The position numbers and the translations under genes were made by a program. DNA of 64,000 bases, taken from Sphingomonas sp. GTDB taxonomy: Bacteria > Pseudomonadota > Alphaproteobacteria > Sphingomonadales > Sphingomonadaceae. This document shows positions 25,764 through 33,801 of the stretch, in pieces (the stretch's first letter is position 1; each line of letters begins with the position of its first letter). The stretch covers positions 10,096 to 74,095 of the forward strand of contig JAIELC010000011.1 of assembly GCA_019753375.1 (NCBI GenBank), written 5' to 3'. The notes under the pieces are model-generated. The model had not been told where the DNA came from, made no database searches, and saw only the letters and a program-made list of their open reading frames with translations.

Positions 25764-25850
25764 GCCCAGATGGCGGAATTGGTAGACGCACCAGCTTCAG
25801 GTGCTGGCGGTCGCAAGGCCGTGGAGGTTCGAGTCCTCTTCTGGGCACCA
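25764..25850 (+). tRNA. tRNA-Leu (anticodon CAG)
   Basis: GCCCAGA/TCTGGGC acceptor stem, CCAGC-TTCAGGT-GCTGG anticodon arm, long variable arm, GTTCGAG T-loop, encoded CCA. Confidence 0.97.
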
Positions 25851-26456: not shown

Positions 26457-27509
26457 GTGGGGCGTTTCGAACTGATGACGGTCCGCGGGCTCGCCTGCGT
26501 GGCGCTAGTTGCATATCACGTGGTTGGCCCAACCCAGGACAACGGCATGCATTTGCCGCTCAATTCATCCTGGCATCTGGCTATGAACAGCCTCGACTTT
26601 CTGCGGATGCCGATGTTCACTGTTCTGTCGGGGTTTTTATATGCTTCCCAACGGGCCGATAGTCACTCCCTGCCACAATTTTACCGCAAGAAGGTGAATC
26701 GGTTGGTCCTGCCACTCGTTTTCGTCACGACCATCATTTTTATTCTGAGGATGAGAGTTTACCACGACAGCACGACCTACATTGAAGCGCTGTTTTTCCA
26801 TTATGAACACCTATGGTTTGTTCAGGCGCTTATTCTTATTTTTGCCGGCATGGGGGCGTGGGATGCCTTTCGGAGACCCTCCTGGGTTGAACTCTGCGTG
26901 GCCGGTTTTGCAGCCGTGATGATTTCTCGTACCTTTCAGATCACCACGTTCTTCAGTTTGAATGGCGCCTGTTATCTTCTGCCCTTCTTCGTAGCGGGCA
27001 TGATCCTGCGCATGTATCGCGCGCAATTGAAAACTGCAGATCTGACCACGATCGCAATCGCCGTGGTCGCGATCGTAATCCTGATGCAACAGGCCTCAAA
27101 CGCCTTCGGTGGCAACGAGATCAGTCGGACGTCAGTTCCTGCCGCGCTGTGCGGCATTTGCGGCACTTACCTGATGCTCGTTCATTGCCCCCGGATGCGG
27201 CTCGCCGAGTTTGTGGGTCGGTACAGCTACTCCATATTCCTTTGGCATTCAGTTGCGGCCTCTGGAGCGCGCCACCTCCTTCGAGCGCACACTCAGCTGC
27301 CCAACGCCGTTGAGTTCTCGCTCCTTCTTGCCGTGGGGCTTTACGGTCCGATTTTGCTACATCGACTTGTCGGTCCGGTCCCTATTCTGTCCCTTTTGGC
27401 ACTTGGCGTGCGGGCATCGGGGAGGAAGCCGCACCATGTAGCCGCAGCAAATGCGACGACACATCCCGCCCCTGCGCAAATATCCGATGTCGGTCGAGGG
27501 AGGCGTTAG
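26457..27509 (+). CDS. Acyltransferase-3 (OafA/YrhL-like) membrane O-acyltransferase
   Basis: RGLAC..LV..YH, RMPMFTVLSGF, HLWFV, GRYSYSIFLWH; visibly lower GC than flanks; start uncertain. Confidence 0.88.
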   Translation: MGRFELMTVRGLACVALVAYHVVGPTQDNGMHLPLNSSWHLAMNSLDFLRMPMFTVLSGFLYASQRADSHSLPQFYRKKVNRLVLPLVFVTTIIFILRMRVYHDSTTYIEALFFHYEHLWFVQALILIFAGMGAWDAFRRPSWVELCVAGFAAVMISRTFQITTFFSLNGACYLLPFFVAGMILRMYRAQLKTADLTTIAIAVVAIVILMQQASNAFGGNEISRTSVPAALCGICGTYLMLVHCPRMRLAEFVGRYSYSIFLWHSVAASGARHLLRAHTQLPNAVEFSLLLAVGLYGPILLHRLVGPVPILSLLALGVRASGRKPHHVAAANATTHPAPAQISDVGRGRR

Positions 27510-27806: not shown

Positions 27807-28535
27807 TCAGATCGACGTCGTCAGATCCGCCAGCCAATCGGGGGTGATGGTGACCAGCACGCCCTCGATCAGATGATCACCACCGGTGATGATGAGCACA
27901 CCGACAACCGCCAGCAGCGTGCCCAGCACCCGCTTGCCGCCGCTGCCCGCCGTCATCAGCTTGCCCCGCCACTGGGCGAGCAGGGATTTGGTCGCCATGG
28001 CAAGGACCACCAGCACGGTTGCGATACCAAGGCCAAAAGCCGCCATGGTCATCGCAACCGCACCCAGATTCTGGCCCTGCGCGGCAAGCACCGTGGCCGC
28101 GCCCAGCGTTGGGCCCACGCACGGGCTCCAGACCAGGCCGAGCAGCGCGCCAATGCCGAACTGGCCGGCCAGGCCGAACCGTTCAAGACCCGATTGGCGT
28201 TCGCTGGCCCAGGCCGACAAGGGCGCCGCCGCGCCTTGCAGCCAATATTGCAGCTTGGGTACCAGCAGCGCGATCCCGGCGAGCAGCAGCAGCGCCGCGC
28301 CAAAATAGCGGACCCAGTCGCCGTCAAACCCACTTGCTGCGCCGACCGTCGCCAGCGCAAAGCCGACGCCGGTAAAGGACAGCACCAGCCCCGCCGCGAG
28401 CGCGAGCGGGCCGTAGCGATGGCTTTGGCCCGCGCTGCCCAGCACGATCGGCACCAGCGGCAGGACGCAGGGGCTGAGGATGGTCAGCGCGCCCGCGGCA
28501 TAGGCCAGCACCGGGTTGAGGGTTTCGGCCGCCAT
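27807..28535 (-). CDS. ccdA: CcdA/DsbD-type transmembrane disulfide reductase
   Basis: LSPCVLP and WSPCVGP motifs, 6 TM segments. Confidence 0.92.
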   Translation of the reverse strand: MAAETLNPVLAYAAGALTILSPCVLPLVPIVLGSAGQSHRYGPLALAAGLVLSFTGVGFALATVGAASGFDGDWVRYFGAALLLLAGIALLVPKLQYWLQGAAAPLSAWASERQSGLERFGLAGQFGIGALLGLVWSPCVGPTLGAATVLAAQGQNLGAVAMTMAAFGLGIATVLVVLAMATKSLLAQWRGKLMTAGSGGKRVLGTLLAVVGVLIITGGDHLIEGVLVTITPDWLADLTTSI

Positions 28536-28538
28536 GGC

Positions 28539-28934
28539 TTATCTGACCACGCTCTGCAGCAGGCCGTTGATCACCGCCTTATCGGTCTTGAATTCGACGC
28601 GGCCGACCTCGGTCTTGCCCTTATAGCCGATCAGCGTGCCTTGCTTGTGCACGCCCAGCGCCTGCCATTCGGGCTTTTGCGAATCATAGTTGATCTCGAA
28701 GATCACCAGCTTGGTGTAGGCCGGATCGGCAATGGCGGCCTTGATGGTCCGATTTTGCGAGCCGCAAATCGGGCACCACCACGCCTTGACATCAACCAGG
28801 ATCGGGCGCCCCGCCGCCTTGGCGGCTTCGAAACTGACACGATCAAATTTCTTGACTTCAGCGGCCTGTGCAGGCGCGGCAAGCAGCGTCAGCGCAGCCA
28901 GCGCAACGGGCATCAAACGAAAGGGCGACATCAT
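28539..28934 (-). CDS. Periplasmic thioredoxin-like protein
   Basis: Signal peptide, WCPIC motif; GGAG RBS; start 28934 or 28931. Confidence 0.9.
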   Translation of the reverse strand: MMSPFRLMPVALAALTLLAAPAQAAEVKKFDRVSFEAAKAAGRPILVDVKAWWCPICGSQNRTIKAAIADPAYTKLVIFEINYDSQKPEWQALGVHKQGTLIGYKGKTEVGRVEFKTDKAVINGLLQSVVR

Positions 28935-28989: not shown

Positions 28990-29016
28990 TTCGCGGCCAC
29001 GCCGGATTTGGTTACA
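28990..29016 (-). promoter_or_regulatory. ECF16/SigF-type promoter TGTAACC-N16-CGAA
   Basis: Minus strand reads TGTAACC aaatccggcgtggccg CGAA, about 55 bp upstream of the thioredoxin start. Confidence 0.75.
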
Positions 29017-29028
29017 GGCGCATCGCCT

Positions 29029-30132
29029 TCAATCGAGGCGGCGCGTCTGGAGCGCGAGCGCCGCCATCAGGGCAACCGCCAGAAACGCGACGATCGGCAC
29101 GCCGTGGCCCAGGACCTGGGCGGCATTATCGCCGCGCAACAAGGCGCCCCGCGCGGCGCGGATGAAATGGGTAAGGGGAAACAGATTGCCGATTGCCCGC
29201 GCCCAGCCGGGCAATGTTTCGAACGGATAGAGAAACCCCGACAGCAACATGGCCGGCAGATAAAAAGCGACGGCGCCCTGCAGCGCGGCCAATTGGGTCG
29301 TCGCCCGCGCGGAAATGGCATAGCCCAAAACCAGATGCGCGGCCGCAAACACGGGCAGTAACGCCAGCAGCGCGCCCGCGGCACCGCGCACCGGCAGGCC
29401 AAACAGCCATATTGCGGCGACAAAGACCAATATCCCCTGCACCGTGCCGATCACGACATAGGGCAGTAATTTGCCGATCAGCGCTTCGATTGGCTCAATC
29501 GGCAGGGCGAGCAGCGCTTCCCAGGTGCCGCCCTCGCGTTCGCGCGCGAGGCTGAGGGTGCCCAGCATGATCATGCCGATCATGACGGTCACGCCGATCA
29601 GCGCCGGCAAGAATGTCCAGTCGGCGCGGGCATCGGGATTGTACAGCCGTTCGATCACATAGCCCGGGCCGGTGTCGACAATATCGGCGCGATCGGCCAG
29701 TCCGTGCCAATAGGCGGCCTCGATCGCCGGCACCGCCGCTGCCACCAGCGCGGCATTACTGGCATCGACGATGATCCGCACCGGGCGGATTTTCGCGGTC
29801 GGGTTGGCAAAGGAAGGCTGCTCGGCCAGTTCGATGCCGATCAGGGCATCGCCGCGACGAACCGCCGCAGCGGCGCCCCCCGGCTTGAGCGCGCTGGTGG
29901 TGACGCGCAGCCCCGCCTGACGCCCGAGCGAGCGAGCTACCGTATCGGCATCGGCGCGCACTTCGGCGGCAACCGCGACGCCTGTCAATTCCCCGCTGGG
30001 CCGGATGGCATAGCCGAAAAGCAGCACCTGCGTTGCCGGCACCAGCAGCAACAGCGTGAGCGCGATCCATGATCGTGTCAGCCGGATGCCCTCGATCCAC
30101 GCGACCGCGCCGATCCGGTGCCACCCGGTCAC
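29029..30132 (-). CDS. ABC-2 exporter permease (YbhR/YbhS-like)
   Basis: ARERE.GT.E.L, LLSGF.YP, PLTHF motifs. Confidence 0.9.
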   Translation of the reverse strand: MTGWHRIGAVAWIEGIRLTRSWIALTLLLLVPATQVLLFGYAIRPSGELTGVAVAAEVRADADTVARSLGRQAGLRVTTSALKPGGAAAAVRRGDALIGIELAEQPSFANPTAKIRPVRIIVDASNAALVAAAVPAIEAAYWHGLADRADIVDTGPGYVIERLYNPDARADWTFLPALIGVTVMIGMIMLGTLSLAREREGGTWEALLALPIEPIEALIGKLLPYVVIGTVQGILVFVAAIWLFGLPVRGAAGALLALLPVFAAAHLVLGYAISARATTQLAALQGAVAFYLPAMLLSGFLYPFETLPGWARAIGNLFPLTHFIRAARGALLRGDNAAQVLGHGVPIVAFLAVALMAALALQTRRLD

Positions 30133-30863
30133 CGTCGCGCCCGATCAGCCAGCGCCAGCACGGCCGCTTCGAGCGTGGGCGCCGCTTCGGCTTGAATCAG
30201 GGCGGCGGGGCTGGTCTGCGTGTGCGCCACGCCGCCATCGTAAAGCAGGATCGACGGGCATTGTTCGGCCTCGATCAGATCATGCGTGCTGATGATGACG
30301 CCGTGGCCGGCAGCCGCAAAATCGCCGATCCATGACCAGATATCGCGCCGGGTGGCGACATCCAGACCGGCGGTGGGTTCATCAAGCAGCAGCAACGCCG
30401 GCGCGGCCAGCACCGTTGCCGCAAACTGCACGCGCCGAGCCCAGCCGCCCGACAACGTCCCGCAACGCTGCCCGACAATATTCCCGATCCCATAATGGTC
30501 GATGGCATGCGCAATCGCGACACGCGGCTGGGGTAAGCCATGGACCGTGGCATGAAAGCGCAATGTCTCCAGCACCGTCAGATCCGGATACAGGGCGAGC
30601 TTTTGCCCCATATAGCCAATCCGGCGGCGGCGATTGTCGTTGGACGCGCCAATCGGGCTGCCCAGCACGCGCCCATCGCCCTGGTCGGGCCTGATCAGGC
30701 CCGCGATCATCCGCAGCGTCGTTGTCTTGCCGCCGCCATTGGCACCGACCAGCCCGACAATCTGCCCGGCATCGAGCGTCATGCTCACCTGGCTGACGAC
30801 CATTCGCCCGTCATAGGCCTTGGCCAGTCCCGTCACGTCGACCATCCGGTCAGGCATGGACAT
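30129..30863 (-). CDS. ABC exporter ATP-binding subunit
   Basis: GANGGGKTT, LSGGW, LLLLDEPT; start 30863 or 30857, overlapping the upstream stop. Confidence 0.92.
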   Translation of the reverse strand: MSMPDRMVDVTGLAKAYDGRMVVSQVSMTLDAGQIVGLVGANGGGKTTTLRMIAGLIRPDQGDGRVLGSPIGASNDNRRRRIGYMGQKLALYPDLTVLETLRFHATVHGLPQPRVAIAHAIDHYGIGNIVGQRCGTLSGGWARRVQFAATVLAAPALLLLDEPTAGLDVATRRDIWSWIGDFAAAGHGVIISTHDLIEAEQCPSILLYDGGVAHTQTSPAALIQAEAAPTLEAAVLALADRARR

Positions 30864-31887
30864 AGGCAAGCCCGCCATACATATATTTGGAAGCCTCGGC
30901 GCCCAATACGACCGCGCGCTCGCCCGCCCGGATGGCCGTGTGGCGCAAATCATCCAGCGCAAGCCAGATCGCCGCCGATCCGGTATTGCCCAGCCGGTCG
31001 GCGTTGACGAAGGCCCGTTTTCGGTCGATGCCGAAATGGTCGGCAAGCTGATCACCGATCCGCCCACTGACCTGATGCGGAATTATCCAATCCGCATCCT
31101 CAATGGGATTGTCCAACGTCGCGGCCATGGCGCGCCCCGCCTCGAACAAGGTGTGGCCCGACGCCCGGATACCGGCAAAGTCATGCTCGAAATGCTGAAC
31201 CCCCTGGTCGAGCCTGATCCCCGGTGCCCGGTTGCGCCCAATGGCCCCATACCAGGCGGCGTCGATCGATGCCGCGCCGCGGCGGGCGCCCGACAGCACG
31301 ATCGCGCCCGCCCCGTCCCCCATCTGCAGCATGTTGACGATCTGGCCATTGTCGCTGGCAAGGCTGATGGGATCAAAGAACAGCGACCCGGTTTCGGAAC
31401 CGACAATCACGATCGGCCGGTCGGGCGCGGCCGCGATCAACCCGCTGGCAATCATCAGCCCGTTGGCAAAGCCGGTACAGGCCTGGCGAAGCTCGACATG
31501 CGGGCCATCATAGCCGATCAGATCGGCGACCGTCGCAACATTGCCGGGGAGCAATTGCTGAGGCGTGGTGGTATGCGCAATCAGATAGCCGATATCCCCG
31601 ACCGCAAGGCCAGCGTCGCGCAGCGCCGCCGTGATTGCCTGCGCGGCAAGATCGGGATTGGCGCGCCCCGGGATCGCGCATTCGCGGCCAGCGTCGAACG
31701 CACGGCAAATATGCCGCGAGCTGATCCCCATCCGCGCCGCCACCGCCGCCGCCCCGCGCACTCCGGAGAAACTGAACCGTTCGGCCAGCAAGGCCAGCAA
31801 GGCGTCGGTCGATACCGCATCGCCAGGGAGAGCGGCGCCGGTACCCAGAACCGCCATTGGTGCGATACTGTGCCAGGCACCGGTCAC
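30850..31887 (-). CDS. KAS III (FabH-like) ketosynthase
   Basis: Cys-His-Asn triad in ELRQACTGF, IPHQ, GNTGSA; MGDGAGA; GTG start overlaps the upstream TGA (GTGA). Confidence 0.88.
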   Translation of the reverse strand: MTGAWHSIAPMAVLGTGAALPGDAVSTDALLALLAERFSFSGVRGAAAVAARMGISSRHICRAFDAGRECAIPGRANPDLAAQAITAALRDAGLAVGDIGYLIAHTTTPQQLLPGNVATVADLIGYDGPHVELRQACTGFANGLMIASGLIAAAPDRPIVIVGSETGSLFFDPISLASDNGQIVNMLQMGDGAGAIVLSGARRGAASIDAAWYGAIGRNRAPGIRLDQGVQHFEHDFAGIRASGHTLFEAGRAMAATLDNPIEDADWIIPHQVSGRIGDQLADHFGIDRKRAFVNADRLGNTGSAAIWLALDDLRHTAIRAGERAVVLGAEASKYMYGGLAYVHA

Positions 31888-32594
31888 GCCGCGAACAGCC
31901 CATCGGGCAATCGCGCCACTTCCGCCAGCAGCGGATCCGGATCCAGCCCCAGCGCCTCGATCGAATCGCCGGCCAATCCCAATATCGCCGCCAGCGCGGT
32001 GCGCGACGCGGCAGCAATGTCGTTCAGTTCGGAGCGCGACATTGACGCGAGCGCAAGCGTCCGCGACACGCGGACGTGTCGCGCCTCGTCCTTGTGGATG
32101 CGCACAAAAATAGCCGCGATCGCCGGATCGGCCCGCAACGCGCCCCCCGGCCGCAGCAAGCGGCCCAGGACCGTACACACGGCGGCGTCAATGGCAGCAA
32201 TGCGGCCAAGATGCGCGGTTGCACCACCGCGACCAAGTTGAATGTGAAACCGCCGCGCCGCCCGCATCAACCCGACGCGACGCTCCGCGCCCGGCAAGCG
32301 ATTGGTGAGCTGCGCCAGCAGCCGGTCATGAACCCGCTCTTCGGCGGCGATCGTCGCCAGCGCGTGCGATGCCACCGGATCGGCCGATGTGCTGGCCAGA
32401 CCATCAAAGGCCAGCGCGGCCGCCTCTTCACCACAGCCAAGCAGCGGAATAAGCGTCCCAAGCCCCAGCGCGGCGCGATCGGACAGCAGAACCGGTGGCG
32501 AAACCGGCGTCAGCGGCACCAGCGGCACTGGCGGCGGCGATGCCCGGGCGAAACAAAAGGCTCGATCAACGCCGCCCTTGAAACCCCCTGTCAT
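31884..32594 (-). CDS. Ferritin-like diiron-carboxylate protein of unknown function
   Basis: GEE..., EERVH, D, DEARH ligand pattern in helical repeats; AGGAG RBS at 32601-32605. Confidence 0.75.
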   Translation of the reverse strand: MTGGFKGGVDRAFCFARASPPPVPLVPLTPVSPPVLLSDRAALGLGTLIPLLGCGEEAAALAFDGLASTSADPVASHALATIAAEERVHDRLLAQLTNRLPGAERRVGLMRAARRFHIQLGRGGATAHLGRIAAIDAAVCTVLGRLLRPGGALRADPAIAAIFVRIHKDEARHVRVSRTLALASMSRSELNDIAAASRTALAAILGLAGDSIEALGLDPDPLLAEVARLPDGLFAA

Positions 32595-32634
32595 CAAATA
32601 CTCCTGCTCGTCGCCGTGGCTGCCGCAGCCTACT

Positions 32635-32661
32635 TTCGCAAAACAGCACCGGAAAGTTACA
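32635..32661 (-). promoter_or_regulatory. ECF16/SigF-type promoter TGTAACT-N16-CGAA
   Basis: Minus strand reads TGTAACT ttccggtgctgttttg CGAA, about 40 bp upstream of the ferritin-like start. Confidence 0.7.
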
Positions 32662-32871: not shown

Positions 32872-33801
32872 GTGGCCATGGCAGACCAAATGGCAGATTG
32901 GTTCCATACCACCACTGGACTGACCCCTTATGATGCGATCGGCTGGACGACCCGGCCCGATGCGTTTGTCATGCCAACGCAGGACCTGCCGGTTCGGGCG
33001 GTCCGGCGATTTGCCAATGAGGGTCGGGAGCCGGTTGTCGCCCGGTCGGTCCAGGAGATCGATCCGTGGGACGCGTTGCTCGTCAACCGCGGCGGTTCGG
33101 GGTTACTGGAACTCACCTTTTGCGGCAAACTTGGCAAAAGCCAGATTTGTCACGATCAGGTCGCGCTGATACCCGCAGGCGCAGATTCGTCGTTTGAATT
33201 TCCACCCGCCGCTGGGTCTTTCACGCTATATTTTCCGACCGGCCAGTTACAGGCTTTGGCAGGTCCGGAAGCGTCGCCCGCCGTACGGCCGATTTTGGGC
33301 GAACGGCACGCCAACATGGCATTGGCGATGGTGAAGGTGGAACGTGAGCTCCTGAACCCGGGCTTTGGATCGGAATTGCTGATCCAAAGTTTGCTGCGAT
33401 CGATCGCGATGATGGTCTATCGGCATGATCCGGCGACGATGCAGGAGACCGCCGAACGCATCCATCTATCCCCGGCCCGGTTGCGCCGGGTGATCGATTA
33501 TGTCGACGCGTGTATCAGCGACCAGATCAGCCTGGATGATATGGCGCAGGTTGCGGGTTTGTCGTCGTTCCATTTTTCCCGGGTCTTCAAGCTGGCGACG
33601 GGGGAAACACCCTATCAATATCTGAGCATGCGCCGCCTGAACCTGGCGCGGCGGCTGCTCGCCCGGGGAGACGCATCGCTGGTTGACGTGGCATTGCACT
33701 GTGGCTTTGCCAATCAGTCACATTTTACCGCCGCCTTTACCCGCGAGGCGGGCATGTCGCCCGGAAAATTCCGGAAGTGCTTCTGGGCAGGGGCGCGCTA
33801 G
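32872..33801 (+). CDS. AraC family transcriptional regulator
   Basis: C-terminal double HTH (LSSFHFSRVFK; GFANQSHFT...GMSPGKFR). Confidence 0.93.
   Translation: MAMADQMADWFHTTTGLTPYDAIGWTTRPDAFVMPTQDLPVRAVRRFANEGREPVVARSVQEIDPWDALLVNRGGSGLLELTFCGKLGKSQICHDQVALIPAGADSSFEFPPAAGSFTLYFPTGQLQALAGPEASPAVRPILGERHANMALAMVKVERELLNPGFGSELLIQSLLRSIAMMVYRHDPATMQETAERIHLSPARLRRVIDYVDACISDQISLDDMAQVAGLSSFHFSRVFKLATGETPYQYLSMRRLNLARRLLARGDASLVDVALHCGFANQSHFTAAFTREAGMSPGKFRKCFWAGAR

Follow-up and report, generated by a model that had tools for sequence, protein, structure and literature searches.

Stress regulons governed by ECF16 SigF-NrsF pairs have been described in Caulobacter (SigF), Bradyrhizobium (EcfF-OsrA), Azospira (SigF), and Brucella (BcrS), and the published SigF/ECF16 promoter consensus is GTAAC-N17-CGAA (PMC3511200, PMC8315932, and PMC3420878; these and other papers are cited here for the sections that concern the point in question). 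The inputs reported for ECF16 systems are varied: chromate and cadmium; copper, through bufferins (PMC11626156); H2O2, with a thioredoxin-CcdA pair (bll1026-27) as the top targets (PMC3420878); and HOCl or chlorite (PMC4436054, PMC8315932). The Sinorhizobium system showed no response to the stresses tried (PMC6180224). Here we analyze a window, that is, the whole stretch of 64 kb examined, from Sphingomonas sp. (contig JAIELC010000011.1; the source genome measures 2.6 Mb and is 88% complete), in which four genes coding for a ferritin-like dimetal-carboxylate protein, a stand-alone β-ketoacyl-acyl carrier protein synthase III (KAS III), and the two components of an ABC exporter lie behind an ECF16/SigF-type promoter. 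Our favored reading, to which we assign a probability of roughly 50%, is that this cassette is induced by SigF and specifies a two-enzyme pathway whose product, an oxygenated acyl metabolite, is exported and would protect the envelope from metals or oxidants. While the superfamilies and the regulon are themselves known, the enzyme pairing, the ferritin-like family, and the link to SigF are undescribed in the literature searched; we found no description of the cassette in open-access papers (this scope takes in neither subscription papers nor supplements, and regulon tables for SigF in the latter could include genes of this kind).

Gene organization and the SigF-type promoter

The initial annotation of the window had proposed a four-gene operon with overlapping start and stop codons, and this is borne out: the genes all lie on the minus strand and overlap by 4, 8, and 4 bases. 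In order of transcription they code for the ferritin-like protein, an orphan of 236 aa (31884-32594), the KAS III-type ketosynthase of 345 aa (30850-31887), a DrrA/RbbA-like exporter ATPase of 242 aa (30129-30857), and an ABC-2 type permease of 367 aa (29029-30132). Compared with five homologs, the ferritin-like gene has third codon positions about twice as divergent as the second, and accordingly behaves as coding. A Shine-Dalgarno-like AGGAG (32601-32605, minus strand) stands 6 bases ahead of its ATG, and 40 bases before the same ATG, also on the minus strand, ends a predicted ECF16/SigF-type promoter, GTAACT-N16-CGAA (32635-32660). A second such promoter, GTAACC-N16-CGAA (28990-29015, minus strand), lies 14 bases past the permease stop. 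It precedes two further minus-strand genes, which code for a likely periplasmic thioredoxin-like protein with a WCPIC motif and a signal-peptide-like N-terminus (28539-28934) and for a Bll1027-like CcdA/DsbD-transmembrane electron transporter (27807-28535). SigF-type control had been missed in the earlier reading of the window; the genes placed in the span 29029-32594 stand as called, but the functional unit reaches further, from the promoter at 32635-32660 to the thioredoxin and CcdA genes of the second promoter.

The GTAAC-N17-CGAA motif matches exactly twice in the window, where 0.22 matches are expected, and these two precede the first ATG of the operon and the thioredoxin gene. Over the whole genome the motif has 14 matches, no enrichment over the 9.7 expected, and hence it is its position that counts. 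Across the homologous loci, with W allowed at one position, the motif lies no more than 250 bp from the start of the ferritin gene in 33/68 (31/44 with close and 2/24 with distant homologs) and equally near the start of the thioredoxin gene in 22/23, against a background of 0.014 for a stretch of that length. After dereplication it precedes the ferritin-like gene in 29/50 loci within 250 bp and in 34 within 1 kb; with control spacers of 14-16 and 18-20 the count was 0/50 at each of the six lengths.

The regulator itself is also at hand. A sigF-nrsF pair lies on contig C72 of the source genome with the same motif upstream, which would make it autoregulated; its NrsF match, at 158 bits, falls under the NCBIfam equivalog cut-off of 300, but the Pfam NrsF model accepts one of the proteins in its cluster. 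Also with the motif upstream in this genome are msrA, a DsbD-like gene, and a DUF1223 gene. Across the cassette loci, sigF-nrsF is frequently divergent from the ferritin gene. Genes for NrsF, MNIO/bufferin, DUF2063, DUF1223, or Msr proteins occur in 19/35 long loci, a count that leaves out SigF, whose matches may include other sigma factors; when thioredoxin and CcdA are included among these markers, 32/35 loci have at least one. Further SigF-type motifs in the source genome (G000) lie at C3:51106 (minus strand) and C2:50063 (plus strand), the former preceding a gene for a secreted-looking Ala/His/Cys protein of about 108 aa, possibly an additional peptide of the regulon.

Conservation and phyletic spread of the cassette

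A survey of neighborhoods had been suggested as a check on the pairing of the two enzymes, and their co-occurrence proved conserved: in a set of 73 loci from genomes and metagenomes, which includes some near-duplicates, ferritin and KAS genes are adjacent in 61/63 loci with enough flanking sequence, and the ABC ATPase is present in 35/43. In the GTDB loci the ferritin-KAS-ATPase order is seen in 9/10 (the tenth ends within the first gene), with the thioredoxin gene downstream in all seven of sufficient length. Dereplication at 90% identity reduced 65 loci to 53, of which 35 measure at least 8 kb; all 35 of these contain KAS, 31 the ATPase, 29 the permease, 22 thioredoxin, and 20 CcdA. The pair is retained well beyond close relatives, being adjacent in 18/18 loci that represent further families of the phylum. 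Here the exporter varies: 14 have, immediately upstream, an MMPL gene in place of the ABC genes, two have no exporter, and one has a YHS gene; in the distant locus G1123 the permease, thioredoxin, and CcdA are again present. The exporter is nearly always there and exchangeable (ABC-2, MMPL, or none), and MMPL proteins, for their part, are lipid exporters. Ferritin and KAS genes have overlapping or near-abutting start and stop codons in several families, and their pairwise distances correlate (r 0.94), as expected for genes moving together. Genes for YHS-domain (seleno)proteins flank the cassette in 12/35 long loci (e.g., L031, L059, L091, L095, and L122), also where other SigF markers are lacking.

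The distribution of the cassette is patchy. It was recovered in 0/60 sampled relatives, in 8/400 genomes of the family, and, counting strong matches, in 4/400 of the phylum; in other families it was found in 22/121 (family f92, with the MMPL exporter), 2/151, and 2/201 genomes. Some cassettes may have been missed, since in the large searches only a small number of candidates was scored for each genome. Homologs of the cassette proteins are named from Sphingomonas and Novosphingobium. The sequencing runs that contain the cassette are freshwater, drinking-water, biofilter, aquatic, and wastewater metagenomes, none of them listed as RNA; since 12/20 runs were flagged as a possible source, we do not use habitat as evidence. 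No fusion of the two enzymes was seen among the longer proteins searched, which is weak evidence, and a 467-aa match (P0220) that might have passed for one was rejected, as it looks like a frameshifted read-through of neighboring genes.

A family of ferritin-like dimetal proteins without a domain model

The metal-ligand pattern read from the sequence at the outset (E, EExxH, D, DExxH) is confirmed as E56, E86-x-x-H89, D136, and D169-E170-x-x-H173. In an alignment of 130 diverse homologs, taken from the best-scoring of 383 clusters, E56, E86, H89, D136, E170, and H173 are the only invariant columns; in a larger alignment the first four of these are present in 143/143 sequences and E170 and H173 in 142/143. 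The aspartate had been remarked upon as standing where glutamate is usual, and D136 is indeed invariant, but it has precedent, as PaaA and BoxB carry Asp too. The 383 clusters (at 50% identity) were recovered by profile search at E<=0.001, 168 of them at 1e-30. Matches of the 130 members to Pfam and NCBIfam are weak, with no one family covering them (the commonest, rubrerythrin, accounts for 40/130); there is no Pfam or NCBIfam model for this family. Moreover, several homologs (P0008, P0023, P0052, and P0081) carry the NCBI label '3-oxoacyl-ACP synthase', which we reject for a protein without a KAS domain and which hides the family in public annotation.

The expected dimetal fold was recovered as well: AlphaFold2 predicts with confidence (pLDDT 89) a ferritin-like bundle whose four-helix core brings together two ExxH motifs and another two carboxylates. 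The best fold match of the model is the aldehyde-deformylating oxygenase (ADO; Z 20.1, root-mean-square deviation 3.1 over 196 residues, 15% identity), followed by ribonucleotide reductase R2 and R2lox (Z 16-18), Coq7 (13.7), the PaaAC chain (13.3), AurF (12.2), and BoxB (11.4). The predicted architecture has the extra helices of the eight-helix ADO/R2lox type and is not the bare four-helix bundle of rubrerythrin or Dps (Z 20 versus about 12). At the sequence level, a single ferritin-like sequence retrieved no match from the PDB, Foldseek with the model returned none at E<=0.001, and a profile search matched an ADO chain only at E 4.5e-4. Further, 0/130 members match the ADO Pfam model PF11266 at E<=0.01, none of the 130 matches the PaaA-type family hidden Markov model PF05138, and a search of plasmids recovered no ferritin-like homolog. 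Outside the bundle, a low-confidence N-terminal arm bears a Cys-Phe motif, with C14 in 64/65 and F15 in 61/65 of the sequences covering it; the arm may serve as a redox shuttle, an acyl carrier, or a lid.

A divergent stand-alone KAS III enzyme

The ketosynthase had been described as having an intact catalytic triad while standing apart from housekeeping FabH. Both points hold: C137, H271, and N301 are present, and the protein is 29% identical to the FabH of its own genome and scores 102 bits against the FabH model TIGR00747 (cut-off 292). In FabH a Trp/Arg pair stacks on the adenine of coenzyme A (CoA); the cassette enzyme lacks both of these residues, which the FabH of this genome has, and its acyl substrate is therefore probably bound to acyl carrier protein (ACP). 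Residues conserved specifically in its clade are H105, E132-x-R134-Q135, Q182, Q188-M189, and H235 (the underlying KAS tree is a quick tree for descriptive use). The enzyme falls under every specific NCBIfam cut-off, reaching 44 bits against 550 and 56 against 450 with the DarB/StlD dialkylresorcinol synthase models, and no DarA aromatase gene recurs across cassette loci. Among solved proteins, the tetronate synthase AbyA1 ranks first in phmmer, profile, Foldseek, and VIA comparisons, though by a small margin and at 26% identity (structural Z 40.4, versus 38.9 for PqsD). The early claim that ACP, acyl ligase, and membrane-fusion genes are absent also stands, in that the unit contains none and no such gene is a recurrent neighbor of ferritin-KAS pairs, with the proviso that our ACP motif scan is weak, failing to pick up the known ACP of L072. 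The cassette can be seen as a variant of the minimal KAS III biosynthetic cluster.

RkD-type tetronate enzymes condense carrier-bound substrates and then close the ring (PMC5724707). A homolog with 41% identity on the Streptomyces clavuligerus megaplasmid pCLA1 is encoded between a desaturase-family gene and one for a monooxygenase that scores 402 bits against the MupA family (cut-off 244); MupA catalyzes alpha-hydroxylation of ACP-bound beta-keto substrates (PMC10952193). From this single neighbor, by analogy, we propose that the diiron enzyme might hydroxylate the substrate or product of the ketosynthase, a lead only and not a test. The unannotated pCLA1 cluster (L090:10799-21064) as a whole codes for a desaturase-family protein, KAS III, the MupA-family protein, a ketoreductase-ACP (KR-ACP), a ketosynthase (KS), a fatty-acid hydroxylase, PAP2_3, and MMPL proteins, and resembles a lipid pathway.

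Proposed pathway and competing explanations

Under our favored reading, stress would free SigF from NrsF and thereby switch on the operon and the thioredoxin-CcdA pair; as the described ECF16 systems answer differing stresses, the inducing signal at this locus is not fixed. KAS III would condense an acyl thioester from primary fatty-acid synthesis with a malonyl thioester, and the dimetal enzyme, with O2, would oxygenate the thioester-bound chain, most likely by alpha-hydroxylation. Release could then yield an alpha-hydroxy-beta-keto, enediol, or tetronate-like lipid, to be carried out of the cytoplasm by the ABC-2 exporter, or by MMPL in other lineages, and to chelate Cu or undergo sacrificial oxidation, while CcdA and thioredoxin would deliver periplasmic electrons in parallel. 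The product had earlier been envisaged as an antioxidant or signal, and the SigF context favors the former, together with metal defense, over the latter. The alpha-hydroxylation/tetronate chemistry in particular we regard as unlikely to be right in its specifics. Equally tentative, and to our minds a good deal more speculative than the general scheme, is an elaboration in which the cassette would be the first small-molecule arm of the SigF response: an ACP-less pathway where the diiron family would replace FkbH or MupA, hydroxylating an acyl thioester perhaps held on the N-terminal Cys arm, and the tetronate-synthase-like KAS III would release an amphipathic reductone or tetronic acid; once exported, this 'lipid ascorbate' might chelate copper or quench hypochlorite and be re-reduced by CcdA-thioredoxin.

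Several observations weigh against the pathway as proposed. The lead of AbyA1 over FabH and PqsD is small at 26% identity, and AbyA1 has itself lost the triad His (PPQLSG versus PHQVSG in the cassette enzyme). In tetronate pathways FkbH and ACP are linked, for glyceryl-ACP; neither FkbH nor a dedicated ACP family recurs near the cassette. PaaA, BoxB, and ADO need a reductase or ferredoxin partner, and we found no conserved partner of this kind for the ferritin-like gene. The two enzymes can also be parted: G039 has a YHS-KAS-ABC-ABC arrangement with no ferritin match in the genome, and G298 (L072:6827-15280) has the ferritin-like gene with genes for a hydrolase, KS, a FabA-like protein, an AMP-ligase of the fatty acyl-AMP ligase (FAAL) type, a desaturase, and ACP, and lacks KAS III; because each of these holds one enzyme alone, the pair is strongly preferred, not obligate. 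As for regulation, the motif is rare upstream of distant homologs (below 44% identity; the 2/24 given above) and a scan of three low-GC loci did not show it immediately ahead of the cassette, so that stress control may be lineage-specific. The bufferin cluster of the source genome shows no clear motif in the stretch examined, and the marker genes counted above were defined from the same loci, among which related ones are not independent. Finally, thioredoxin and CcdA are known targets of EcfF and are here served by a promoter of their own, so they may adjoin the cassette through common regulation and not through a common pathway. Two side observations touch the ferritin-like family: in two related genomes (L074 and L121) a gene resembling ferredoxin-NADP reductase, whose product might supply electrons, is divergent from the ferritin-KAS pair, and the G298 cluster, a second biosynthetic context for the family, also holds an ABC1 kinase gene.

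The alternative that survives best, possible yet in our estimate improbable, separates the two enzymes: the ferritin-like protein would be an independent detoxifying dimetal enzyme (a thiol-recycled peroxidase or oxidase, or a metal sink) with the Cys14 arm as redox shuttle, and KAS and the exporter would make a separate product with a shared stress role. The lack of a partner reductase and of ferritin in G039, the rubrerythrin-type best Pfam matches (weak, 40/130), and the conservation of the C14-F15 arm even in the KAS-less G298 protein are all in keeping with this; opposed to it are the overlap or near-abutment of the gene with KAS in several families, its predicted eight-helix fold, and its renewed appearance among acyl-handling genes in G298. 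The ADO-like fold, the ability of KAS III enzymes such as OleA to join acyl chains, and the MMPL exporter of family f92 would suit a pathway of OleA/ADO type, in which the product is a hydrocarbon, a ketone, or a desaturated membrane lipid and acts by altering membrane permeability, not by reacting with metals or oxidants. We hold this to be unlikely, as OleA scores far under AbyA1 and FabH, no OleB/C/D-like genes recur, and the SigF regulons so far described are scavenging and repair systems.

The response of the regulon to oxidants would fit a role in the repair of lipid damage, with ADO being the closest fold and neither ACP nor a release enzyme being needed: the ADO-like enzyme would deformylate or reduce aldehydes or chlorinated or peroxidised acyl fragments arising under oxidant stress, KAS III would re-prime truncated acyl thioesters for fatty-acid synthesis, and the exporter would clear the residue. 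However, the other known context of the KAS clade is a biosynthetic cluster (KR-ACP, KS, MMPL), the carboxylate ligands of ADO are all Glu, unlike the Asp third ligand here, and the ADO Pfam model detects none of the members, making this a doubtful explanation. Tailoring of bufferin-type peptides encoded nearby, by acylation or oxidation, has in its favor MNIO genes in 8/35 and BufA-type genes in 9/35 dereplicated loci and, in some, DoxX or bufA genes co-oriented directly upstream, but is very improbable given that most loci, including all 18 distant ones, lack MNIO/BufA genes and that bufferins have signal peptides and mature without cassette genes in Caulobacter (PMC11626156).

Flanking features of the locus

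With a GC content of 0.66, the cassette is similar to the genome, and no tRNA-end repeat that would mark an island was found at the locus. Matches to sigma-70 promoters and terminators are at chance level only, and the sole match of an Rfam scan is a tRNA-Leu. This tRNA-Leu(CAG) (25764-25850) adjoins an acyltransferase-3 family gene (26457-27509) of lower GC (0.58), which may be a small insertion site. An AraC-family regulator gene (32872-33801), also in a lower-GC stretch, is divergent from the operon; we rejected it as a dedicated regulator, as it is not conserved beside the cassette, with one distant homolog (in L001).

Implications and comparison with known systems

If the favored reading is true, a lipid-like metabolite would be a new product class in ECF16/SigF defense against metals and chlorine, so far a matter of peptides and repair enzymes, and the 383 clusters would define a diiron oxygenase family. 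The promoter offers a direct handle: SigF overexpression revealed the bufferins and should expose the product of the cassette likewise, for which Sphingomonas psychrolutea, S. glacialis, and Novosphingobium piscinae are among the named carriers. A two-gene pathway on the primary acyl pool should also be easy to express and attractive for biocatalysis.

The ECF16 regulons share with the cassette their promoter consensus and, at its loci, several of their neighbors, viz. NrsF, the bufferin MNIO cluster, MsrA/MsrP, and thioredoxin with CcdA as in bll1026-27. They differ in that their targets, as described in the sections cited, are peptides, methionine-repair enzymes, and electron-transfer proteins, with no ketosynthase/diiron pathway with exporter among them. 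Of the enzymes, cyanobacterial ADO, which works with an acyl-ACP reductase (AAR), is the best structural match, is similar in size, and likewise has a partner that handles acyl groups; the cassette protein has KAS III as that partner and an extra N-terminal Cys arm. The tetronate synthases AbyA1 and RkD share with the cassette ketosynthase the stretches GLGRxPG, QxSGR, and ExSK, but the latter keeps its triad His and has no FkbH, glyceryl-ACP, or polyketide synthase adjoining it.

PaaA (ligands E42, E72, H75, D126, E155, and H158; PMC4498308) and BoxB (E120, E150, H153, D211, E240, and H243; PMC5489048), which both oxygenate CoA thioesters, have the same Glu, Glu-x-x-His, Asp, Glu-x-x-His set as the ferritin-like protein, with a near-identical first spacing (30 residues). 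In contrast, the bridging Lys68 of PaaA, four residues before its first ExxH, is missing (position 82 is Ile in 122/143 homologs), no PaaBCE or BoxA partners accompany the cassette, and the protein is much smaller than BoxB and matches these folds more weakly; it belongs to neither family.

The conceptual precedent is the furan fatty acid pathway of Rhodobacter (UfaM/D/O). Its control runs through ChrR, an anti-sigmaE. The pathway differs in using unrelated enzymes and in modifying phospholipid chains in place, with neither ketosynthase nor exporter; what it has in common with the cassette as we read it is the concept of a small operon under ECF anti-sigma control that yields an oxygenated protective lipid (PMC7380195).

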